DNA of 64,000 nucleotides from Minisyncoccota bacterium (GTDB lineage Bacteria; Patescibacteriota; Minisyncoccia; Phycocordibacterales; JAACPR01), in contig JBAYWG010000001.1 of the NCBI GenBank assembly GCA_041674225.1, positions 169,401-233,400 of the forward strand. The letters run 5' to 3'. Each line of letters begins with the position of its first letter. Position 1 is the first letter of the stretch. The position numbers and the translations under genes are program-made. Below, piece after piece: positions 732 to 58,215 of this stretch. Under the pieces are notes generated by a model. The model ran no database searches and was not told the DNA's origin. It saw only the letters and a program-made list of their open reading frames with translations.

Positions 732-1556
732 TCACGGCAGGATAGAATAAGCCGTAAAATTATGAAATCCAGAAGGCCAGAGTTCAAGTACTGTTGTGTA
801 AAATTGCGTATGCGCTTTTCCAGCATCAGACTCGACACCCTTAGTAAACTTCATGAGAAGTTTTTCATAGACATCACTGCCACCGTATTGATCATCAGCT
901 GGAAGTTTTCCAGTTTTCAAATCTCCACCTAGTGCAGTGATTGTAAGTTGTGCAGCTCGTGCAATCTGTTCAGAAACCCTTTTAGGTTCCAAAACCATGT
1001 TTGAAACAATTGAATTGCTCCAATCAAAAACAACAACACGATGGTTGTCTCGATTGATTAGAACATTGTCTCCACTGAACTGAACACTCACACCAATGTT
1101 GCATGCAAAATCAAGAAGCTTAAGTTGCTTCCCCATAATCCATACACTTGTTTTGGGATCTACACGAATTTTCTCACGAGCAGAAAGATGACCGAGTGGC
1201 ACAAGGTCACTCAGACTTTTCGCTACTCTTGATAAATCCAAGATAAGAACGTTTCTGTCTCCCTGCTCCTTCGAAATAAAACTTTCGAGAAGAAAAGGGA
1301 AAGACTTGTCGTACTGAAACGTATTTTCTGGATCAATTCTTTCGACACCATCCTGCAGAGTTTGCAGAACAAATGCCTCTAGATCAAGTTTTCCATTGTG
1401 CGTCTTTTCACGAGCAATCTTCAGGATTCCGGGTTTACAATCTTCCAGAATACACTCGTAAAGGGTAAAACTTTCTGTTTGACCCAAACGCTCACCAACT
1501 TCGTACTGAGCCGTGGGGCTTTGTATAAACTGAGCCGTAAAAGGTTTAGTTTTCAT
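732..1556 (-). CDS. atypical protein-kinase-like fold protein
   Basis: 274-aa ORF ending 36 nt upstream of the vWA gene start. The motif order is kinase-like: YEVGERLGQTESFTLYE (Gly-loop-like), GILKIARE (VAIK-like Lys), LEAFVLQ (helix-C Glu), SGDNVLIN (catalytic D-x4-N), VVFDWSNS (DFG-like). There is no HRD His. Confidence 0.5.
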   Translation of the reverse strand: MKTKPFTAQFIQSPTAQYEVGERLGQTESFTLYECILEDCKPGILKIAREKTHNGKLDLEAFVLQTLQDGVERIDPENTFQYDKSFPFLLESFISKEQGDRNVLILDLSRVAKSLSDLVPLGHLSAREKIRVDPKTSVWIMGKQLKLLDFACNIGVSVQFSGDNVLINRDNHRVVVFDWSNSIVSNMVLEPKRVSEQIARAAQLTITALGGDLKTGKLPADDQYGGSDVYEKLLMKFTKGVESDAGKAHTQFYTTVLELWPSGFHNFTAYSILP

Positions 1557-1645
1557 TGAGTTTTTGATTCTTTGGTTGATTATTAAAGATCTATTTTTAG
1601 GTTAAATTTTAGCTCTTTATATATATAAAATGGTGTTTTGTCAAT

Positions 1646-2929
1646 ATGAGCCATATCACAAAAAATAAACAATATGCTACGATACCAGCAATGAGCGCGG
1701 ATGTATGGGATGTAATAGTAATAGGTGGCGGACCAGCCGGAATGATGGCGGCGGGTCGTGCTGCAGAGCGAGGAAAAAAAGTCCTACTAATAGAGAAAAA
1801 TGATTCGCTTGGAAAAAAACTACTTATCACAGGAGGTGGTCGTTGTAATGTGACAAATGCAGAGCTCGACACCAGAAAATTATTATCAAAATTCAAAGAC
1901 GGAGGAAAATTTCTTTTTTCATCTTTTGCAGAATGGAATGTGCAAAATACTTTGGATTTTTTTCATACTAGAAATATGCCAACTAAAATTGAAAAAGAAT
2001 TGCGCGTCTTCCCTGTTTCCGACAAAGCACAATCAGTTTGGAATGTTTTAGTTGATTATATTAAAAAAAATAAAGTCACAATTCTTTCTGATTCCCCTGT
2101 TTCAGATTTTGTTTTAGAAGACGGAAAAATAGTTGGGGTGAAAGTGAAAAAAGATATTATCAAAGGTAAAAGTTTTATCCTGGCCACAGGAGGAACATCT
2201 AGACCGGAAACAGGTTCTACAGGTGACGGTTTCAAATGGCTTAAAAAAATTGGTCACACTGTAATAGAACCGGTTCCTTCTCTTGTGCCAATCGCCGCAA
2301 AAGATATTTGGATAAAAAGATTGTCTGGTGTGAGTCTGAATGACATAAAATTAACAGTCACACAAAACGGCGAGAAACAAAGTGTTCAAAAAGGAAGAAT
2401 TCTTTTTACTCATGTCGGCATTAGTGGACCAACAATTTTAAATATGTCCAAAGATATCGGTGAACTTCTGAAATATGGAGAGGTAAAAATTCTTTTGGAT
2501 CTTTTGCCAAATCATGATCACGCCAAATTAAATTCTACTCTTCAAGAAATTTTTAAAGAGAACGACAAAAAGAATTTCAAAAATTCCCTTTCAGGATTAA
2601 TTCCTTCTGCAATGATTCCAATAATTACTGAACTTTCAAAAATAGATCCGGATATCAAATGCAACAGCATCACTCGAGAATCACGAATGAAATTGATTGA
2701 ACTTCTAAAAAATATTCCACTAAATGTGCATAAATTACTTGGGGTTGATAAAGCAATTATTTCAAGCGGTGGAGTTTTACTCGACGAAGTAGATTTCAAA
2801 ACAATGTCATCGAGAATTTACCCGAATCTATTTTTAATTGGAGACATTCTAAACATCGACAGACCGAGTGGTGGCTATAGTTTGCAGTTGTGTTGGACAA
2901 CGGGTTTTGTCGCTGGGAATTCTATTTAA
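1646..2929 (+). CDS. HI0933/BaiN-family NAD(P)/FAD-dependent oxidoreductase
   Basis: The dinucleotide fold DVIVIGGGPAGMMAAGRAAERGKKVLLIEK is followed by ITGGGRCNVTN, the hallmark of HI0933-like flavoproteins. An alternative start is ATG 1691. Confidence 0.85.
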   Translation: MSHITKNKQYATIPAMSADVWDVIVIGGGPAGMMAAGRAAERGKKVLLIEKNDSLGKKLLITGGGRCNVTNAELDTRKLLSKFKDGGKFLFSSFAEWNVQNTLDFFHTRNMPTKIEKELRVFPVSDKAQSVWNVLVDYIKKNKVTILSDSPVSDFVLEDGKIVGVKVKKDIIKGKSFILATGGTSRPETGSTGDGFKWLKKIGHTVIEPVPSLVPIAAKDIWIKRLSGVSLNDIKLTVTQNGEKQSVQKGRILFTHVGISGPTILNMSKDIGELLKYGEVKILLDLLPNHDHAKLNSTLQEIFKENDKKNFKNSLSGLIPSAMIPIITELSKIDPDIKCNSITRESRMKLIELLKNIPLNVHKLLGVDKAIISSGGVLLDEVDFKTMSSRIYPNLFLIGDILNIDRPSGGYSLQLCWTTGFVAGNSI

Positions 2930-2961
2930 TAAAGAAAACTCACACGAATGTGAGGGTGACT

Positions 2962-3213
2962 TTAGCGCAAAAAATCTTGCACTAAAACCAAAAGATCTGA
3001 TTCGACTTTTTCAGGATTACTTGCGCAACGCAAAATTTCCCCAAGTGAAACGATAGCGACAGCCTGACCTTCCGACCAGACTTTCATAACTGCCTTGCCT
3101 TTCGAATCAAGGATATTGTATCCGCCGCCTTCTCCACCTTTCCACGAATGGTCGGTGGCAGACAGAATGCATTCCACCAACTCTAAATGTTCCAATTGAT
3201 TTTTAGTTCTCAT
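2962..3213 (-). CDS. hypothetical small protein
   Basis: 83-aa ORF filling the gap downstream of the hydrolase gene on the same strand. No recognisable motif; it may be non-coding. Confidence 0.3.
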   Translation of the reverse strand: MRTKNQLEHLELVECILSATDHSWKGGEGGGYNILDSKGKAVMKVWSEGQAVAIVSLGEILRCASNPEKVESDLLVLVQDFLR

Positions 3214-3253
3214 TTAAAACCAACCTACAACAAAATTTACAGAAAGTGAATAG

Positions 3254-3811
3254 CTATATATTTTTCACAAACATTTTTTCTAACTCCTCCAAAACTTCAG
3301 GAAGTTTTTTCCAACCAGCAGATCCATTCAAGTGAACTCCGTTCGGGATAATAATAGGTTCTTTGTCTAATTTGTCTCCAAGTTTATAAGCATTTTCTAC
3401 AACAACCAAAGTGTCATTATCTCCATGAATTATCGACACGTCTTTTAGATTTGATTTTATAATTTCAAAATCAAAGTCTTTATAAAAATTTTCAGTAAGC
3501 GGGTTATTTGATTTTTCAAATCTACCTGCAACCAGAACTGCTCCCGGAAAACTTTTATCAGAATTTTGCAGATAATTTAAAATAGCAGCAACACCTAAAC
3601 TATGCCCAACAAAATATATTTCATCATTTTTATTTAAACCCACATGTCTAGAAATTTCATTAACCCACTCTGAACATATCGGAGCCTCTGGATTTGGCAT
3701 AGCCAAAGAACAGGCGTATACATCTTTTAATTTTAATTCCCCCATAAGCCAAGGAATCCAACTACTGTTTGGGCAACTATTAAAACCATGAATTATAAAT
3801 ACTTTTTTCAT
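3254..3811 (-). CDS. small alpha/beta serine hydrolase (YdeN/RBBP9-like)
   Basis: 185 aa with KVFIIHGF at the N-terminus, the nucleophile elbow GHSLG and IHGDNDTLV. The size and motif order match the small Ser-hydrolase family. Confidence 0.75.
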   Translation of the reverse strand: MKKVFIIHGFNSCPNSSWIPWLMGELKLKDVYACSLAMPNPEAPICSEWVNEISRHVGLNKNDEIYFVGHSLGVAAILNYLQNSDKSFPGAVLVAGRFEKSNNPLTENFYKDFDFEIIKSNLKDVSIIHGDNDTLVVVENAYKLGDKLDKEPIIIPNGVHLNGSAGWKKLPEVLEELEKMFVKNI

Positions 3812-3872
3812 AAAAATAGTTTAACACAAACAAAAAAAGCCTTGAAACAAGACCCCTTTTGTTTTTTATAAA

Positions 3873-4013
3873 TTACTTTCCGTTAAGAGCCTTTTTTCGA
3901 GCTGCTGGTTTTAATGCTTTGATTCTTAGCATTTCCTTCTTTTTTGCAATTCGTGTTGGGCCTCTCTTAATAAAGCTTGTCTTTGCTTTGATTGATCCTG
4001 ATCTTTTTGCCAT
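3873..4013 (-). CDS. small highly basic protein (46 aa), family unassigned
   Basis: Below the ORF-track size cutoff. ATG 4013..4011 to TAA 3875..3873 gives MAKRSGSIKAKTSFIKRGPTRIAKKKEMLRIKALKPAARKKALNGK. The composition is ribosomal-protein-like, but I cannot match it to a named family. Confidence 0.35.
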   Translation of the reverse strand: MAKRSGSIKAKTSFIKRGPTRIAKKKEMLRIKALKPAARKKALNGK

Positions 4014-4059
4014 AGGTAAATGAGTATATATTAAATTTAATTAAAATGCCACAGCGGGT

Positions 4060-4605
4060 TTAATTACGAACTTTTTCAGGAGACAAGAAAGTGAGTGCCA
4101 TTTCAATCCCTCTCATTTCACCCTTTAAACCTAGAGCAGTTTTTTGAGTCTCTTCGAATGTGTCTAAAGAACCTCCCGCTGGCACATTTTCTTTACCACC
4201 ATAACTTTCAATTTGAGCTTCTCTGTTGTAACGAACATCCGGTGCAGCAATAAGTCTTTCCTGCATTTTTATAATAGAAGCATACAAATTATTCAAACCA
4301 GCACCGCCTCCTGTTTGCTCAAACAATTCAAAAATTGATTTTACATTCACTTCAAATGCAGATAATTTTTTAAGCAATTCCGCAAACGCTTTTCTATGTA
4401 TCATATCGCTATAGACATTTCCATCAGTATAATTATGCGGACTCGTCATCTCAAACTGATGCAAAGCCGGCGCCACTTCTTTTTCAAATTCTTTTGTTAT
4501 TCCTTCCAAAACTTCAATTCTTTCGTTCAAGCTCTCAAATGACTCAGCCTTTGCTGGCTCTAATTCTTGTGGTAATTGATCTCTGCCAAATTTAAAGTTT
4601 TCCAT
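4060..4605 (-). CDS. hypothetical protein
   Basis: 181-aa ORF in the co-directional gene string. No recognised motif. Confidence 0.5.
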   Translation of the reverse strand: MENFKFGRDQLPQELEPAKAESFESLNERIEVLEGITKEFEKEVAPALHQFEMTSPHNYTDGNVYSDMIHRKAFAELLKKLSAFEVNVKSIFELFEQTGGGAGLNNLYASIIKMQERLIAAPDVRYNREAQIESYGGKENVPAGGSLDTFEETQKTALGLKGEMRGIEMALTFLSPEKVRN

Positions 4606-16093: not shown

Positions 16094-16121
16094 AGCCGGT
16101 TCGAGATGAGTCGAACCGGCT
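16094..16121. terminator. bidirectional terminator between ddl and the Ubl gene
   Basis: AGCCGGTTCGA-GATGAG-TCGAACCGGCT, preceded by an A-run. Confidence 0.65.
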
Positions 16122-16151: not shown

Positions 16152-16457
16152 TTAGTTACCGCGAATCTTTGAAAAGATCAACACCTGTGCTCCTTCTTCG
16201 AGCACCTCCTCAAAATTGGAGATTGTCTGTCCGTTCAAACGAACCTCTCCTTCAATTTTGTCTCGATAACCGGCAATTACCAGCGCCTGTCTGATTGTGG
16301 TTCCAGAGTCCACCTCGAAAGGTTTGATCTGTCCACCGGGGAAAGCACCGACTTTCACGTTGATTTTCTCAACTTGTGCCGGAGTCTCCTTTTTGGAAGT
16401 TGCTTTCTTTGCAGCGGGTTTCTTGGTGGTTGCTTTCTTTGTGGTTCCTTTTTTCAT
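16152..16457 (-). CDS. ubiquitin-like beta-grasp (ThiS/MoaD-like) protein with a Lys-rich N-terminal tail; C-terminus ...KIRGN
   Basis: The start is the first ATG (16457). The tail is MKKGTTKKATTKKPAAKKATSKK. The core is INVKVGAFPGG..FEVDSGTTIRQAL...VRLNGQTISNFEEVLEEGAQVLIFSKIRGN, which follows the ThiS/MoaD pattern (v.vNG..v....l.eGd.v.i....G). It lies directly downstream of the E1 gene. Confidence 0.6.
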   Translation of the reverse strand: MKKGTTKKATTKKPAAKKATSKKETPAQVEKINVKVGAFPGGQIKPFEVDSGTTIRQALVIAGYRDKIEGEVRLNGQTISNFEEVLEEGAQVLIFSKIRGN

Positions 16458-16497
16458 GGTTCTTTTCTTTTGGTTTGTTTGTTGTTTACAGATTTTT

Positions 16498-17205
16498 TTA
16501 ACTGAACGACGAACCCACAATCATCATGGGTTGAAGTGAGAATATCAATTCATGCTCGAACTCATCGGTCGGTTCTTTACCTTCCTTAAGTTTCTGCATT
16601 TTCTGATACCATCGGATGAATTGCCACACAGCAAATCCCGAGACCATTTCTGCCGTCGGACCTACTGTGATAGTTGCTCCGCAAGCGGAGACTTCAGCAA
16701 CGTCATCACCATACAGAGTTTTTTCCCATCCCGAAACTTCTACGGGACTTGATGGATTCACTGTATAGATACGACCACTATTGGAACCCATACGAGTCTC
16801 AATAATAACCTCAACGTGAGGTCTGTAACGAAGTGATCCTTTCCAGATTTCTTGTCGTGAAGACATTGTATCTGTCAGCAGGAAAACAATCTGACCGAGA
16901 CGTTGTGTTCCATCAACTCGTTCATTGTGCACCGAAACTTCGGTACCTGTCTGCACGAGAATAATATCTTTCAACGCCTCAACCTTGAGTTGTCCATTGT
17001 GATTGTTACCGAATATTTGGTTTGGGACGTTGTGGGGTTCCACTACATCCGGATCCCAAATGTGAATGTTACGGATACCGAGCTTCGCCAACGAAAGGGC
17101 GATTCTAGATCCTGTAGCACCCACACCTATGATATCGATACGTCTATCACCAAATTCTTGCGGTGAAAACACATCAAGGTGTCTTATTACGTCTAGTTCT
17201 GGCAT
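16498..17205 (-). CDS. ThiF/MoeB-type E1-like adenylyltransferase (minimal, 235 aa)
   Basis: IDIIGVGATGSRIALSLAKLGIRNIHIWDPDVVEPHNVPNQ is the nucleotide-binding motif. EVSACGATITVGPTAEMV is the Cys-bearing segment. A good SD (AAGGAG) lies 5 nt upstream of the ATG. Confidence 0.8.
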   Translation of the reverse strand: MPELDVIRHLDVFSPQEFGDRRIDIIGVGATGSRIALSLAKLGIRNIHIWDPDVVEPHNVPNQIFGNNHNGQLKVEALKDIILVQTGTEVSVHNERVDGTQRLGQIVFLLTDTMSSRQEIWKGSLRYRPHVEVIIETRMGSNSGRIYTVNPSSPVEVSGWEKTLYGDDVAEVSACGATITVGPTAEMVSGFAVWQFIRWYQKMQKLKEGKEPTDEFEHELIFSLQPMMIVGSSFS

Positions 17206-17237: not shown

Positions 17238-18023
17238 TTAACGAAACCTTTTCCGGAAAAACCGGGGTTTATATTTTCCTCCAAAACCCTTGAAAAAGGG
17301 TGGTGAATACGGAGCGAACCGCAAAGCAGTAACTTTCCGTTTCATTTCCTCCCGAAGATCATTACGAATTTCATCCAGTTTGTCCCAGTCATCTATGTCT
17401 TCTTCTGTCCATTTCCATGGAACAGAATGAAAAGCGAAACCCTTCTCCCAGTCATAAATTCCGAAATTGATATCTCCTTGACGATTTAAGATACCGCGCA
17501 AGAAAAAATCAGTACCGAAACTTTGAAAGATTTTCATCTGATCATTATCTTGACCAGATGGGTAAGTTCCACCATTTCCATGTGAATGTCCCCAGAAGCG
17601 TATGTTGTTGAAGATTTCGTCACCACCTTCTTTCGAAAGGATTTCCATGACAAATTCTTGAAGAGCTTCTGGAAGAATTTCAGTATGGCCACCGCTCACA
17701 GTCTGAGGAAAGAGGAACACGTCATCGATGATGAAGTCTTCTCCTAGTCGCCGAGCAGTTCCAAGCCACCCCACTTCAATATTGATTGCACCTACAATAA
17801 CGTACATCTTGAAGAGGGCCAATGGACTGACAAATACAGTCGGAATATGGTGTTTCAACGTCAGAACTTCCAGAGTTGTATGGAAAACATCCGACGGAGC
17901 AAAAAATTGTCCGTCTGTCTCTGCGAATTCCCATTGGTAAGGCTGCGGAGGGGTTGGAGTATATGGGCGAGGAGCACCAACAATTTTTGCTGGCAGAGGG
18001 AGTTTAGTATTGTTTTTTTTCAT
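17238..18023 (-). CDS. JAB/MPN (JAMM) metalloprotease
   Basis: E83 lies in NIEVGWLGT, and H146-S-H148-GNGGTYP-S156-GQ-D159 gives a complete E...HxH-x7-S-xx-D JAMM motif (nt 17547-17588). There is a Pro-rich N-terminal extension and a basic C-terminal tail. Confidence 0.85.
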   Translation of the reverse strand: MKKNNTKLPLPAKIVGAPRPYTPTPPQPYQWEFAETDGQFFAPSDVFHTTLEVLTLKHHIPTVFVSPLALFKMYVIVGAINIEVGWLGTARRLGEDFIIDDVFLFPQTVSGGHTEILPEALQEFVMEILSKEGGDEIFNNIRFWGHSHGNGGTYPSGQDNDQMKIFQSFGTDFFLRGILNRQGDINFGIYDWEKGFAFHSVPWKWTEEDIDDWDKLDEIRNDLREEMKRKVTALRFAPYSPPFFKGFGGKYKPRFFRKRFR

Positions 18024-18124: not shown

Positions 18125-18155
18125 AAACCGCTCTCAGAAACTCTGAGAGCGGTTT
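18125..18155 (-). terminator. rho-independent terminator after the E2-like gene
   Basis: Minus strand reads AAACCGCTCTCAG-AGTTT-CTGAGAGCGGTTT followed by TTTTATATT. It separates the E2-like gene from the JAB-E1-Ubl unit. Confidence 0.7.
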
Positions 18156-18167
18156 GACTTAAAGCCA

Positions 18168-19799
18168 TTATTTGATAGCAAGACTGCCATCAAATTCCTT
18201 CAAGAATTCCAGGACCAGCTCGATTACTGTTTCCAGATCGAGTTCTCCAAGAAGTTCCGGCAATGTCGCATGAAGAGGACCTATGGGTAGCCCTCCATCC
18301 CACATTGGGTGCAAATGAGGAATATTAATATCCGGCTCCATTTCGTTACCGATCGGAGAAATACTAACTAATCCTTTCAACACGTTGCACAAAATACGAA
18401 ACGATCCGATGTTGTGAATTTTTTCGGTTGAAATGTCCCTGCTTTTGATAGATCTAGTATCAACAACGAAGACATCATCTCCCTTGAAAAAGACACCCGA
18501 GACTTCCGGCCAGGCACTCACCCTTTGGATACGTTCATTGAACAAATCAGTGGTCACAGCAGCAGGAACCTTTACAAGGTTTTGGATAAAAACGTTTTGC
18601 GCTATCATCATCTGATTGCGACGAATATTATTCATCAACTTTTTCAGTTCATTTTCCTTATCCTGCTTCTGTGCTGCTCGTTCATCTACGAACAGATTAC
18701 GGAAAGCCGAGATCACGACAGGATCTTTAAGCGGTGGCTTTTTTGGATAATCGATACTTTTATCAACAACAGGAAACTTCCTCAAAACAGTGAGGTAATC
18801 TCCGTAATGAATTTCGTTTATCGTTCCAATTGCTTTAATGGCAACAAGGATGGACGCTTCGAACTCATAATCCTTGAGTAAAGGAAGAATAACCTTTCCT
18901 TCCCCCATACAAAATTGATTCGTGTACCGATCCACATGAGGATGACCAAAAGTGTGTCTTTCATACTCAACTCGACGAGTGAGGTTTTTAAACACAGCAG
19001 GTGTTTCTTCACCACCTCCAAAGAGAAGCTTGATCTCAAATTGTCCAAATTCATGAAGAATTTTAGTTCCGGGATCAACAGCATACATGGTCTGTGTGGT
19101 GAAAATGATTCTTCTACCATCCACTCTAATGTTCTGAATCTCAGGAATATTCCAAAGAGTTTGAAGCACCTTATCAGCTTCTTCGTAAGCTTGCTGGTTG
19201 TCATCATTCTTTGATACCAAAGAAGAAGTCAAAACAATATCGTTTTGAATCAGCCGACGATTTTCTGTAAGCTGTTTTTGAAGATCAACATCTTTCTTGG
19301 ACTTAGGAATTTTGAATTTCCCATTCTTGATTTGAACAAGACTAGGCAAATCTCCCCTGATGAGATTCATTGCTTCTGTAAGAATGTGTTTATACACATC
19401 CACGTTCGGCTTATTACAGCAATTGTTAGAAGCATCGTAAAGCAAATACAGATTATTTTTTCCAACGAGTTCTGCAACAGCATAATTGCTTTCAGGATCC
19501 ACAATAACAATCCCTCTACCAGAAGGTTGATATAGAGTACGATTACATGTACGAACTCTTTGTTTCCACAACTCGTCTGGAAGCGTCAATTCGACCTTAT
19601 CACCATCAGCAGTACCGAAGACGTTAAGAAAAAATGTAGTTGAAAAACGACGTACATCTCTTTGTCTTCCTTGACAGTTGTACAGTTGAATTTCATTGAA
19701 CCCCAATATTTCCAATGCATCACCCAAAACATCTCGGGTAGCTGATTCAAAAGAATCCGCAACACGAAAATCCCAATTTGTTTTTTCTATTCTTATCAT
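18168..19799 (-). CDS. large tandem E2/UBC-like protein (HPH...Cys297 module plus a Cys-less UEV-like module, with coiled-coil linkers)
   Basis: Residues ~205-335: WNIPEIQNIRVDGRRIIFTT...FGQFEIKLLF...FGHPHVDRYTNQFCMGEG...ILVAIKAIG. This parallels the UBC order GxFxLxLxF...HPNVxxxGxIC...VLLSIQALL. Residues ~425-540 repeat the module (WPEVSGVFFKGDDVFVVDT...IGSFRIL...IPHLHPMWDGG...VIELVLEFL) but have no Cys. Confidence 0.55.
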   Translation of the reverse strand: MIRIEKTNWDFRVADSFESATRDVLGDALEILGFNEIQLYNCQGRQRDVRRFSTTFFLNVFGTADGDKVELTLPDELWKQRVRTCNRTLYQPSGRGIVIVDPESNYAVAELVGKNNLYLLYDASNNCCNKPNVDVYKHILTEAMNLIRGDLPSLVQIKNGKFKIPKSKKDVDLQKQLTENRRLIQNDIVLTSSLVSKNDDNQQAYEEADKVLQTLWNIPEIQNIRVDGRRIIFTTQTMYAVDPGTKILHEFGQFEIKLLFGGGEETPAVFKNLTRRVEYERHTFGHPHVDRYTNQFCMGEGKVILPLLKDYEFEASILVAIKAIGTINEIHYGDYLTVLRKFPVVDKSIDYPKKPPLKDPVVISAFRNLFVDERAAQKQDKENELKKLMNNIRRNQMMIAQNVFIQNLVKVPAAVTTDLFNERIQRVSAWPEVSGVFFKGDDVFVVDTRSIKSRDISTEKIHNIGSFRILCNVLKGLVSISPIGNEMEPDINIPHLHPMWDGGLPIGPLHATLPELLGELDLETVIELVLEFLKEFDGSLAIK

Positions 19800-19839
19800 T
19801 TTGTACTAGGTATAATTTTAAAACAACTTCTGGCAGAAG

Positions 19840-19866
19840 AATATAACACAAATCAAGACATGTCAA
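19840..19866 (-). promoter_or_regulatory. promoter candidate for the E2-like gene
   Basis: Minus strand reads TTGACA (19866-19861), a 15-nt spacer, then TGT-TATATT (extended -10, hexamer 19845-19840). Confidence 0.45.
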
Positions 19867-19876
19867 TTATTAAAAT

Positions 19877-19906
19877 AAAAAGCCGCCACCCAACCAGGGT
19901 GGCGGC
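19877..19906 (-). terminator. rho-independent terminator after the flavoprotein gene
   Basis: Minus strand reads GCCGCCACCC-TGGTT-GGGTGGCGGC followed by TTTTTATTTT. Confidence 0.75.
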
Positions 19907-19913
19907 ATACACA

Positions 19914-21467
19914 TCAGCGAGCGAGCTGATATTCCGCGCTTCTCATAACAACACCAAACAAAACATCTCCAATCCGATGAAGCATGCCAGGAATGACGAT
20001 GGCATTCGGGTTGTGAGGAGTTTCCAACACAGACCCAAAGCCGTAATAACCAGACAAAATCCGCTTCTTAGGATCAGGACTGTGTTTGACGATAAACTCT
20101 CCATCGTAATCAAACAAAGGACACTTATCTACAGGATCGTAGGTGCAGCCCATGCTTTTCATAACTTCCGGCGAATTACCATACCCAATGAGTGTCATGA
20201 TCTTCCCAAAGGGAATTTTTTCAACCTCAGAGTGCTCTTTACGAAAGACGTAGACTTCCTTTCCAGCAACTTCCCAACGATTGACTCCATAAAGAATTTT
20301 TCCATTGTGAAGCGCACGGTAGTAATCACTACGACTTCTCGCAAGATCTCCCTGAAAATCAACCAGATTAGGAAGGGATACATCCCGAAATAATCTGCGT
20401 GCAACTCCATCAACGACAACAGTCGTGTTTGGATTATAAACACATTCTTCAGGGTAGTGAGTAAGAACACGATAGTCCACAGCCGCACCTCGATCAATCA
20501 GATTATGAATCTGAAAAAGCATCTCTGCCGTTGAATTACCGAGTCCGACGAGGATAATTCTCTTACCCTCAACTTCATCGCGATCAATAACCTTCTGCCA
20601 ACGTGAACCGGCTTGGGCAGTGGTCGCTTCAGTAGTCATGCGACTTGGATCAGAAAGCGGTTTTGGTTTACCGAGACCAATCGTATTAATAACGATTGGA
20701 AAAGTTTCTTTTTTTCCATTAGCGAAATGAAGCACGTGCTTCAACTTACCAGGAACAATCTTGACCACCGTCTCCTTTTTAGAACGGTAAGCTAGATTAT
20801 CTAGGAACCGGCGAACTTCTTCACCATCTCCAGGTGCAGGCCGCAAGATTCTATCAAAGAATTGTAGCTGACGTGGATTATTCCTAGACAGTCCAAAGAC
20901 ATTGTTCTGACTCCAGATACCCAGCGGCTTAGACTTCTCATATATGGTAATGTTATTAAAACCAAGTTGTCTGAGCGCGTAAGTGATAAGAATCCCCGCA
21001 GCCCCATAACCGACAACGGCAATTGGAACTCGAGACAAGGAATTTGGAATAGTAGATTGGCTGACAAAAAAAGTTGCCGCACCCTCTCCTAAAAACTGTT
21101 CCGGACTCCGAAGACCGCTATTGGCAAGAGCCAAATCGATACGACGATTCTGCAAATGTTCACCTCGATATTCAGGAAGATTATCTTCACTGTCGATAAA
21201 AGGAAGTGCTTGGGCATAACCATTAAGAACTCCTCCAACATCACCGACTCGAAGAACCAATTCAGAAAAAAGGTTACCCCAACGTCCTGTGTTTGACATT
21301 TCTTGGACAGCATCAAGACTGAATCCTTTCTCGTCAATCCATCTTCTCAGAACACCCAGCGAAACCTTTTTCATAAAAGAATCTCCTAGGGTCTTGAGCT
21401 TTTCACAAGCAGTCACTAAGTCACGAGGAGTTCTTTTTGAACTCATTCTTTTTGAAGCGGTATTCAT
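19914..21467 (-). CDS. flavoprotein with two dinucleotide-binding folds (class-B monooxygenase / pyridine-nucleotide oxidoreductase-like) and a ~150-aa N-terminal extension
   Basis: IAVVGYGAAGILITYAL is FAD-type GxGxxG and IILVGLGNSTAEML is the second GxGxxA fold. TLIGYGNS is ATG-like. No CxxC redox pair is present. Confidence 0.6.
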   Translation of the reverse strand: MNTASKRMSSKRTPRDLVTACEKLKTLGDSFMKKVSLGVLRRWIDEKGFSLDAVQEMSNTGRWGNLFSELVLRVGDVGGVLNGYAQALPFIDSEDNLPEYRGEHLQNRRIDLALANSGLRSPEQFLGEGAATFFVSQSTIPNSLSRVPIAVVGYGAAGILITYALRQLGFNNITIYEKSKPLGIWSQNNVFGLSRNNPRQLQFFDRILRPAPGDGEEVRRFLDNLAYRSKKETVVKIVPGKLKHVLHFANGKKETFPIVINTIGLGKPKPLSDPSRMTTEATTAQAGSRWQKVIDRDEVEGKRIILVGLGNSTAEMLFQIHNLIDRGAAVDYRVLTHYPEECVYNPNTTVVVDGVARRLFRDVSLPNLVDFQGDLARSRSDYYRALHNGKILYGVNRWEVAGKEVYVFRKEHSEVEKIPFGKIMTLIGYGNSPEVMKSMGCTYDPVDKCPLFDYDGEFIVKHSPDPKKRILSGYYGFGSVLETPHNPNAIVIPGMLHRIGDVLFGVVMRSAEYQLAR

Positions 21468-58000: not shown

Positions 58001-58034
58001 AAAACACCTGCCACGGCGACATGTCAGGTGTTTT
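58001..58034 (-). terminator. hairpin after the H1-like gene, upstream of secA
   Basis: AAAACACCTG-14 nt-CAGGTGTTTT. On the minus strand it is followed by TGT-TATGAT 8 nt before the secA ATG. Confidence 0.45.
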
Positions 58035-58059: not shown

Positions 58060-58215
58060 TTATCGTTTCTTTGTTGTCTTCTTTTTAGCAGCTGGTCGTT
58101 TTGTTGCTTTTTTAGCTGTCTTTTTTACTGTCTTCTTAACAGCTTTTTTTACAACTTTTTTAACAGCCTTTTTCTTTGGAGCTGCTTTTTTTGTTGCTTT
58201 TTTCTTTGTTGCCAT
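58060..58215 (-). CDS. histone-H1-like lysine/alanine-rich small protein (51 aa)
   Basis: Below the ORF-track cutoff. ATG 58215..58213 to TAA 58062..58060 gives MATKKKATKKAAPKKKAVKKVVKKAVKKTVKKTAKKATKRPAAKKKTTKKR. Confidence 0.6.
   Translation of the reverse strand: MATKKKATKKAAPKKKAVKKVVKKAVKKTVKKTAKKATKRPAAKKKTTKKR

Follow-up and report, generated by a model that had tools for sequence, protein, structure and literature searches.

The minus-strand gene at 16152..16457 of a 64,000-nucleotide stretch of contig JBAYWG010000001.1 from a Minisyncoccota bacterium (hereafter the window) encodes a ubiquitin-like protein (Ubl) of 101 aa, in which a lysine-rich N-terminal tail precedes a β-grasp core that ends in Gly-Asn. 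This Gly-Asn end was found to be the signature of a whole family of Ubls, the genes of which recur in a row with those of a small E1-like adenylating enzyme, a JAB metallopeptidase and an E2-like protein. The E1/E2/JAB/Ubl cassette is apparently uncatalogued and was seen mainly in metagenome-assembled genomes (MAGs) labelled as members of the Candidate Phyla Radiation (CPR). On balance, the sequence comparisons incline us to the view that the Ubl serves as the modifier in a cassette for ubiquitin-type protein conjugation, where JAB would trim the terminal Asn, E1 and E2 would conjugate the Gly and the tail would add a polycationic character. The larger result is the Gly-Asn signature of the family together with the gene row; the tail, taken by itself, is a lineage-specific curiosity of modest weight.

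The bacterial ubiquitination-like pathways such as CBASS Cap2/3, Bil and Bub make up a young field, in which each new family has brought unexpected chemistry. The cassette described here unites a modifier akin to SAMP2 with a minimal E1 that has a single Cys, an Rpn11-like peptidase and a large protein that houses an E2 plus UEV-like double module. Its confirmation would extend the prokaryotic roots of ubiquitin signalling by one more lineage and would provide a simple system for probing the activation of a C-terminus other than Gly. With the lysine tail, one could also ask whether a Ubl can be directed to its place by an appendage of its own that binds nucleic acid.

The Ubl has a predicted β-grasp core and belongs to a large family

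The core spans residues 32–99 (16161..16364, minus strand). In a single-sequence AlphaFold2 (AF2) model, in which the core has predicted local distance difference test (pLDDT) values of 68–78, it is built of β1 (residues 31–38), β2 (45–50), α1 (55–61), β3 (72–74), β4 (77–79), a short helix (83–88) and β5 (92–94), in the order ββαββ(α)β. When this model was compared with PDB by Foldseek, it matched SUMO-2/3, the C-terminal domain of ISG15, ubiquitin and UBL domains with a probability of 1.0. The family profile searched against PDB was nearest to archaeal SAMP2 of P. furiosus and H. volcanii (E = 1.4e-5 to 1.8e-4; full length, positions 4–68), followed by SUMO2, MoaD, ThiS and TtuB, and two of the relatives (P0003 and P0018) exceeded the gathering score of Pfam SAMP2. 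The window protein alone gave no Pfam match. The order of the elements, the Foldseek matches to SUMO, ISG15 and ubiquitin and the SAMP2 profile match bear out the β-grasp that had been proposed in the first-pass annotation of this DNA, and the model and profiles together indicate that the core is a SAMP2/ThiS-type ubiquitin-like β-grasp domain.

When the whole Ubl was used in a word-indexed search for homologues, only the protein itself and a single relative were returned, namely P0002, which is encoded on a GC-rich contig in the same JAB-E1-Ubl order as in the window and next to an E1 of 78% identity. The family was therefore collected by an HMMER scan with the core profile over 1.84 billion representative proteins, which gave 267 relatives; domain counts and domain ends were analysed in 148 of the 150 best-scoring of these. 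A single domain was present in 49 proteins, two domains in 69, three in 24 and four in 6. The two- to fourfold tandem arrays carried by many relatives are polyubiquitin-like, with every repeat ending in K/R-Gly-Asn. Within the window, the sole match of the family hidden Markov model (HMM) was the Ubl open reading frame (ORF; E = 2e-28). A tblastn search of a three-repeat relative against 50,697 GenBank phages and a search of a four-repeat relative against viral contigs gave no match, and thus a phage origin of the tandem forms could not be shown; a phage-like context was seen at one locus, L003, which carries a four-repeat poly-Ubl. Separately, five relatives (P0101, P0102, P0120, P0123 and P0129) were noticed in which a single Ubl ending in KGN or TGN is followed by a C-terminal region of ~130–145 aa, acidic or Cys-rich in several of them; from their layout, these proteins may be Ubl-fusion precursors.

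The C-terminus carries a family-wide Gly-Asn signature

The Gly100-Asn101 codons (16155..16160, minus strand) form the C-terminal signature of the family and the predicted site of processing and activation, at the end of a flexible stretch, ...SKIRG-N, that follows the core. Among 283 domain ends, 227 (80%) were Gly-Asn, 22 Gly-Ala and 12 Gly-Gly, with N, A or G at the +1 position in 92%, and Gly was the sole invariant column in an alignment of 42 domains from the relatives. The protein had been described earlier as ending in a single Gly (RGN). The Gly followed by Asn is indeed at the terminus and this penultimate Gly is conserved throughout the aligned relatives, but the Asn proved to be part of the family signature and not a stray residue.

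The removal of Asn from the Ubl end is judged likely rather than established, and cleavage after Gly100 is modestly favoured over the retention of Asn because of a precedent in type II Bil. In the Ubls of that system a single Gly is conserved throughout, with up to nine residues after it, and in E. aridi BilA, which ends in Gly-Ala, the additional residue prevents the binding of ATP and is taken off by the JAB protein BilC (10.1101/2023.09.26.559546). The trimming by JAB of a residue after a single Gly, as the first-pass annotation had envisaged, therefore has a direct counterpart.

Several observations speak against trimming. Asn follows Gly in 80% of the domain ends, and when the profile is aligned to H. 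volcanii SAMP2, its GN lies in register with the GG at the SAMP2 terminus, with Asn falling on the second Gly. Half of the family ends exactly in ...GN and none at ...G: of 142 protein ends, 64 were exactly ...GN and 7 ...GA, with none at the conserved G, and the others carried 1–4 or many more residues. On these grounds the activation of Asn itself is a possible, though less probable, course, in which Gly-Asn would be the Gly-Gly of this family and E1 would adenylate the α-carboxylate of Asn101, perhaps via a succinimide as in the maturation of microcin C7 by MccB; JAB would then only cut poly-Ubl precursors and extensions after Asn, besides deconjugating. The restriction of the +1 position to N, A or G agrees with such a scheme, as does the finding that PaaA and MccB were the best solved sequence relatives of the E1 profile, MccB being an enzyme that adenylates a C-terminal Asn. 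However, these E1 matches are weak and cover the generic Rossmann part only (residues 16–92), Ubl conjugation, in all cases characterised, proceeds through a C-terminal Gly (occasionally Ala), and the invariant residue of the family is Gly, with Asn in only 80%. To our knowledge, the eukaryotic Ubl precursors SUMO, NEDD8, Atg8 and UFM1 never end at the reactive Gly. Together with the single extra residue of BilA that must go before ATP can bind (10.1101/2023.09.26.559546), these points tip the comparison towards cleavage after Gly100.

The Ubl gene stands in a row with E1, JAB and E2-like genes

The E1 and JAB genes adjoin the Ubl gene both in the window, as had been pointed out earlier, and in the related loci. 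The E1-like adenylating enzyme of the ThiF family (235 aa; 16498..17205, minus strand; Pfam ThiF, 2.9e-17) contains GVGATGS at residues 27–33 and DTMSSR at residues 112–117. Its single Cys, Cys175 (16681-16683), lies in an SACG motif; this Cys is conserved in two aligned E1s and visible in other loci, and the identity of the E1s across all related loci is 47–78%. By alignment offsets (query 14–188 versus ThiF 22–197), Cys175 corresponds approximately to ThiF residue 184, which we take to be the cysteine forming an acyl-disulfide with ThiS. The solved sequence relatives of the E1 were PaaA, MccB, MoeB, ThiF, TcdA, Uba4 and UBA5, matched over the Rossmann part only; Bil and Cap2 were not among its PDB sequence matches. 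An E1 pattern scan of the genome contigs gave no match.

The JAB/MPN+ metallopeptidase (261 aa; 17238..18023, minus strand) carries Glu84 in IEVGW and the HSHx7SxxD motif at residues 146–159 (17547-17588). Its sole significant PDB sequence relatives were Rpn11 and CSN5 (E = 1.7e-5 to 1e-3), and it is conserved beside E1 in the related loci.

The E2-like protein (543 aa; 18168..19799, minus strand) contains two modules, as the module HMM matches it twice. The first (residues 206–347; 18759-19184) bears FKNLTR...HPHVDRYTNQFC297 (18909-18944); the second (residues 421–534; 18198-18539) contains IPHLHPMWDGGLPIG, lacks Cys and is UEV/RWD-like. The protein as a whole had no Pfam, NCBIfam or PDB match. 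In its orthologues, the GHPHV...C.GEG motif is invariant and the HPH and Cys are conserved. When a profile of ten modules was searched against PDB, 22 of the 23 matches were eukaryotic E2s, with marginal E values from 0.03; in these alignments PH falls on the HPN and Cys297 on the catalytic Cys of UBE2A, Rad6 and UbcH7. The hhalign comparison of the module with four canonical E2s gave a probability of 55% (E = 1.2e-4) and paired the same columns. The E2 assignment is nevertheless statistically marginal and the 543-aa protein gave a poor AF2 model (pLDDT 45), both of which count against a conjugation role of the row. As far as the sequences go, the module pair is reminiscent of an E2/UEV pair. 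In loci L008 and L009, the Cys-bearing module and the second E2-like module belong to different proteins.

Genes for the E2-like protein, JAB, E1 and, at the end of the row, the Ubl are found together again in L002, L012, L016 (with a three-domain Ubl), L017/L025, L019, L021, L026 and L028. Parts of this row are carried by the truncated contigs L001, L022 and L035, and in L008 and L009 the same genes are arranged differently. MAGs labelled as Saccharibacteria, Kaiserbacteria, Parcubacteria and Patescibacteria are among the named sources of the row, and the closest relatives with a named source organism belong to CPR. The accessory genes vary by locus, with a flavoprotein in some and AAA+ ATPases in others.

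The cassette is predicted to conjugate the Ubl to proteins

In the conjugation pathway that we propose, the Rpn11-like JAB would cleave after the invariant Gly and release Asn101; in the relatives, it would also cut the tandem poly-Ubl precursors and the C-terminal extensions. The minimal MoeB/UBA5-style E1 would then adenylate Gly100 and take the Ubl onto Cys175 as a thioester, from which the Ubl would move on to the 543-aa protein, where it would be received by Cys297 of the HPH...C E2 module. The Cys-less second module and the N-terminal region of that protein would serve to hold either the Ubl or the substrate. Finally, the Ubl would be transferred onto a target lysine, and the conjugation could be reversed by JAB.

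The same Ubl and E1 could be read as a sulfur carrier of the ThiS/MoaD/TtuB/CysO type, which would be thiocarboxylated by E1 after maturation by JAB, as in CysO-Mec+ or QbsE-QbsD, and would not modify proteins. The core is indeed ThiS/SAMP2-like, the E1 is a minimal MoeB/ThiF-type enzyme, and sulfur carriers matured by JAB proteins are known (PMC1779556). We consider this role very unlikely, because a conserved E2-like HPH...Cys protein always stands alongside, the relatives include polyubiquitin-like tandem arrays and Ubl fusions, and the row is without any rhodanese, sulfurtransferase, thiamine, molybdenum cofactor or tRNA-thiolation gene. In addition, the C-terminus is GN and not GG.

Comparison with the known ubiquitin-like systems

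Membership of the cassette in the Bil, Bub and CBASS systems was rejected on the basis of E1 architecture, sequence comparisons and partner genes. In its predicted working the cassette is like type II Bil, which likewise has separate Ubl, E2, JAB and E1 genes and a conserved Gly with trailing residue(s), and in which some Ubls have disordered N-terminal tails or extra domains (PMC11601603). However, BilD is a protein of 535 aa with IAD, AAD and mobile CYS domains, whereas the E1 of the window is a single ThiF domain of 235 aa with the Cys in its core, and the E2 module and its Cys-less copy are embedded in the 543-aa protein. The +1 residue, variable in Bil, is a conserved Asn here, and the tandem members repeat Gly-Asn in each domain. 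In line with these differences, hhalign gave the Ubl profile a probability of 1.2% against BilA and the E2 module 0.1% against BilB (CEHH), and BLASTP of the E1 against E. aridi BilD aligned the Rossmann motif only (E = 0.019). Type I Bil differs still in another way, with a two-domain ISG15-like Ubl ending in Gly and a large E1 using Cys385, as compared with one domain, a Gly-Asn end and a 235-aa E1 in the window.

Sampylation by SAMP2, UbaA and HvJAMM1 resembles the cassette in having the closest solved Ubl, a small MoeB-type E1 and a JAMM protease that acts on the Ubl. It differs in that the window cassette has a conserved E2-like protein, a GN end, a bacterial (CPR) host, tandem poly-Ubl forms and a JAB closer to Rpn11/CSN5 than to any other solved JAMM; we know of no E2 in sampylation. 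The head-to-tail arrays of the relatives, with the reactive motif closing each unit, recall polyubiquitin, and the disordered N-tail before the β-grasp recalls SUMO-2/3, the top Foldseek match of the model. From both of these the Ubl is set apart by its ~20% identity, its Gly-Asn motif and its minimal bacterial-type E1, and from SUMO also by a tail that is far more basic and of H1-like composition.

The Bub and type II CBASS systems are also bacterial E1/E2/peptidase cassettes with a Ubl or a Ubl-like C-terminus, and Bub Ubls have one to three β-grasp domains. Bub, however, uses oxyester chemistry without a catalytic Cys, a BubE serine protease of DUF6527 and JAB-E1 or E2-E1 fusions, whereas in the cassette Cys175 and Cys297 are conserved, the genes are separate and the row has no DUF6527 match in Pfam or NCBIfam. 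By our own reading of the Bub Ubl3 proteins, the reactive end is present on the last domain only. In type II CBASS (Cap2/Cap3), an E2-E1 fusion stands beside a CD-NTase, which is conjugated, and an effector, but the row has no nucleotidyltransferase; in PADLOC, the Rossmann part of the E1 scored best against CBASS E1-E2 models, over residues 16–107 only. The operon types with described partners (PMC1779556), namely 6a with a metallo-β-lactamase, 6b with a nucleotidyltransferase, 6c with a CEHH protein, 6d with JAB-N, a helical protein and an E2 lacking the canonical His, and 6e with a JAB-E1 fusion, polyUbl, RWD and a Zn finger, were set apart by the descriptions in that paper, not by sequences, and none of them matched the window row. 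NCBIfam (June 2026) holds no family for the Ubl, JAB, E2-like protein or flavoprotein, and for the E1 it gave only a sub-threshold ThiF match. In the limited collection of literature searched, no specific description of a CPR Ubl system, of this Ubl family or of phage polyubiquitin-like proteins was found.

The lysine-rich tail is recurrent but not conserved

The N-terminal extension of the Ubl covers residues 1–31 (16365..16457, minus strand), has a net charge of +9 and is unstructured in the AF2 model, with no secondary structure in residues 1–30 and pLDDT of ~50–57. Its first 23 residues (16389-16457, minus strand) form the K-rich sequence KKGTTKKATTKKPAAKKATSKK with 10 Lys, and a 15-nt tandem repeat was located at 16419..16469 by Tandem Repeats Finder (3.4 copies, 80% matches), which encodes a KKxTT pentapeptide. 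A density of at least 10 Lys per 22 aa was reached in two of the ~62 window genes, the Ubl ORF and an H1-like ORF at 58060-58215, against ~0.02 stretches expected. The lysine tail is beyond chance, and the earlier description of an H1-like lysine tail ahead of the core holds; the tail is a compositional outlier among the window genes. Its likeness in K/A/T style to the H1-like ORF was upheld in part: the ORF exists and is alike in composition, but the two share no homology (BLASTP E = 12, nothing alignable), by which a derivation of the tail from the H1-like gene was ruled out. The Hc2/HC2-type H1-like proteins resemble the tail in their short-period repeats rich in K, A, T and P, and the Lys density is that of the H1-like ORF of the genome itself. 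The tail is, however, a 23–31-aa appendage on a folded modifier that does not align with these proteins, and not a free-standing DNA-binding protein; its Pfam HC2 match was weak (E = 0.13, 12.8 bits versus a cut-off of 40). The H1-like ORF (58060-58215, minus strand) encodes 51 Lys-rich aa, including MATKKKATKKAAPKKKAVKK, upstream of secA; it has no Pfam match and is followed by its own hairpin and T-tract at ~58003-58030. The known N-terminal appendages of bacterial Ubls are N/G-rich tails, coiled coils and DUF1508, and a Lys-rich H1-like tail is not among the appendages given there (PMC11601603).

The conservation of the tail was followed in the closest clade, defined as the representatives with a GAFPGG motif (n = 14 at 50% clustering). 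Their N-terminal extensions range from 0 to 33 aa (median 20.5 aa; at least 15 aa in 8 of the 14), and strongly basic tails are present in four, the window protein, P0008, P0029 and P0031, the rest being Gly-rich, neutral, acidic or absent. Thus, alignment of the homologous Ubls did not reveal a conserved tail, in contrast to the conserved Gly. Neither of the outcomes by which the first-pass annotation would have been refuted, homologues lacking both the tail and a conserved penultimate Gly or a predicted structure other than a β-grasp, was obtained. These comparisons indicate that the tail is a lineage-specific low-complexity extension, recurrent but dispensable, and not a conserved part of the Ubl; since orthologues without it exist, it would not be required for the conjugation chemistry. 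Over the larger sample, strongly basic tails were found in 7 of the 49 members with one domain and in 1 of the 99 with several (Fisher p = 0.002) and long N-terminal extensions in 16 of 49 and 11 of 99, respectively (Fisher p = 0.003), although neither test takes account of the shared phylogeny of the members or of start sites that may have been annotated wrongly. An Arg-rich version of the basic tail, with 8 Arg and 1 Lys, occurs in one relative, P0146.

The role favoured for the tail is an electrostatic one, namely a non-specific affinity to nucleic acid or other polyanions, since the tail is H1-like in composition, carries a net +9 and has an Arg-rich variant. The tail would concentrate the free Ubl on polyanionic surfaces, or load a charge of ~+9 onto the modified target. 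Tethering to the nucleoid and a supply of acceptor lysines had been put forward as possible roles in the first-pass annotation. The Arg-rich P0146 tail favours charge, rather than acceptor lysines, as what the tail provides. A tail acting mainly through its lysines, in the manner of the N-tail of SUMO-2/3, would let single-domain Ubls be polymerised head-to-tail after translation and so mimic the tandem arrays. The 10 Lys within 22 residues before the core fit this idea, as do the disordered N-tails of the top Foldseek matches, SUMO-2/3, and the near confinement of basic tails to single-domain members, the others being encoded as two- to fourfold arrays. We hold it to be unlikely, as the P0146 tail could not accept isopeptide bonds, the tail is missing, neutral or acidic in many single-domain orthologues, and the core has four Lys of its own.

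Close orthologues without a basic tail (P0028, P0034, L026 and L028) count against a function of the tail, and suggest that it may be a near-neutral low-complexity expansion. On such an account, slippage of the 15-nt unit in an AT-rich genome favouring AAA/AAG would have produced a disordered leader that is merely tolerated, in agreement with the tandem-repeat origin of the tail, the GC content of the window (0.355), the lack of conservation in sequence, length and charge among close orthologues and the orthologous cassettes that do without a tail. Yet basic tails of ~30 aa reappear in lineages whose GC is 0.45–0.56 (L017, L002 and L019) and in other subclades, including the Arg-rich version; they are significantly enriched among single-domain members, and the Lys density of the window tail is matched by just one other gene of the window. 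Neutral expansion is therefore rather doubtful, and the electrostatic role is kept as the favoured one.

A bolder reading, which we regard as speculative and improbable, is that two rules of Ubls are bent together in this CPR system. Gly-Asn would itself be activated, with Asn adenylated in an MccB-like way, possibly through a succinimide, or with Asn cyclisation aiding the processing of polyubiquitin-like precursors, and in some lineages an H1-like DNA-binding tail would make conjugation deposit a polycation on the targets or take place on nucleoid or phage DNA. If true, bacteria would have a counterpart to the ubiquitylation that is linked to chromatin.

In another relative found by HMMER, P0097 (106 aa), the Ubl ends in KGN and a K-rich basic peptide, TKPKAKCCGCGCKATAKKVVAKKTVKAKKPAKKSAKK, lies past the predicted cleavage site, a layout that can be likened to ubiquitin fused with a basic ribosomal protein. 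An action of the neighbouring flavoprotein on the K-rich tail was considered and ruled out, as the flavoprotein-bearing cassettes L026 and L028 have Ubls with short neutral tails.

The Ubl is probably translated from ATG 16457

The longest form of the Ubl ORF (16152-16520, minus strand) starts at a TTG and encodes 122 aa, with ATG 16457 inside it. The protein from ATG 16457, MKKGTTKKATTKKPAAKKATSKKETPAQVEKINVKVGAFPGGQIKPFEVDSGTTIRQALVIAGYRDKIEGEVRLNGQTISNFEEVLEEGAQVLIFSKIRGN, begins with MKKGTTKKATTKKPAAKKATSKKETPAQVEKINVKVGAFPGG, ends in LIFSKIRGN and has 101 aa plus stop, whereas TTG 16520 adds 21 residues, MWVRRSVKKICKQQTNQKKRT, that overlap the E1 gene (stop codon at 16498-16500). These coordinates, given in the first-pass annotation along with the remark that the choice of start matters, hold in the sequence. 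The public annotation of an identical protein, a hypothetical protein of Candidatus Paceibacterota, is the 101-aa form. In single-domain orthologues, with a ~30-aa tail or with none, the annotated Ubl start lies 11–42 nt past the E1 stop, and Shine-Dalgarno (SD)-like purine tracts are seen at the matching position, where the window reads AAAAGAAAAGAACC. The 21-residue TTG extension found a counterpart in no orthologue. Annotation, spacing, SD-like tracts and the lack of a counterpart together favour ATG 16457 as the true start, and the TTG is further disfavoured because its extension runs over the conserved E1 C-terminus.

Translation might in principle begin after the tail, at a GTG at Val34, or the tail might be an artefact of annotation. 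The canonical GGAGG is missing ahead of ATG 16457, and P0034, a Ubl of the same clade, begins directly at the first strand. An untranslated tail is nonetheless highly improbable, given that the reading frame is open from an ATG 40 nt past the E1 stop, that single-domain orthologues start at 11–42 nt with SD-like tracts, tailed or not, that tblastn aligned residues 5–101 of the window Ubl, tail included, with L017, and that a GTG start would cut into strand β1. The start at ATG 16457 is thus retained.

Transcription units and neighbouring genes

An intrinsic-terminator-like hairpin with an 11-bp stem followed by the T-tract TTTTTCTTTT (16094..16121, minus strand) closes the JAB-E1-Ubl unit. A strong hairpin with a T-tract lies between the E2-like and JAB genes (18125-18155, minus strand), and a terminator with a 10-bp GC hairpin follows the flavoprotein gene (19882-19906, minus strand), after which comes a promoter-like site matching at 10 of 12 positions (19838-19866). 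The hairpins after the flavoprotein and E2-like genes suggest that JAB-E1-Ubl is a tight unit, and the “operon” may consist of three transcription units.

The flavoprotein itself (517 aa; 19914..21467, minus strand) has two dinucleotide-binding motifs, VVGYGAAG and LVGLGNSTAE, with weak matches to Pfam NAD_binding_8 and Pyr_redox_2, and its gene is probably a separate transcription unit. Neighbouring flavoproteins in L017/L025, L019, L026 and L028 are 50–56% identical to it, and that in L035 38%. Among 118 homologues, the source-named ones are mostly from Patescibacteria or DPANN archaea, and the distant ones do not adjoin Ubl genes. An apparent ThiF-flavoprotein fusion (P0258) was rejected, the ThiF annotation being a Rossmann cross-hit.

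The AAA+ genes (PF00004) at L021 1640-3418 and L022 2987-4684 adjoin cassettes with a tail-less or short-tailed Ubl, and that at L003 6761-8374 adjoins the four-repeat poly-Ubl on the phage-like contig. Together with the Rpn11-like JAB, such neighbours hint at an unfoldase link. In L002, a second, unrelated row (749-4189, minus strand) stands back-to-back with the first cassette and encodes a 520-aa protein with a faint Prok-E2_D match, a JAB, a 255-aa ThiF and a 120-aa ORF ending in ...SGTKG. In L017, from a Saccharibacteria-labelled MAG, a large serine recombinase gene (1-573) is located ~1.5 kb upstream of the five-gene row. This recombinase and the 78% identity of the E1s between the 35%-GC genome and the 68%-GC contig L001 suggest that the cassette moves horizontally.

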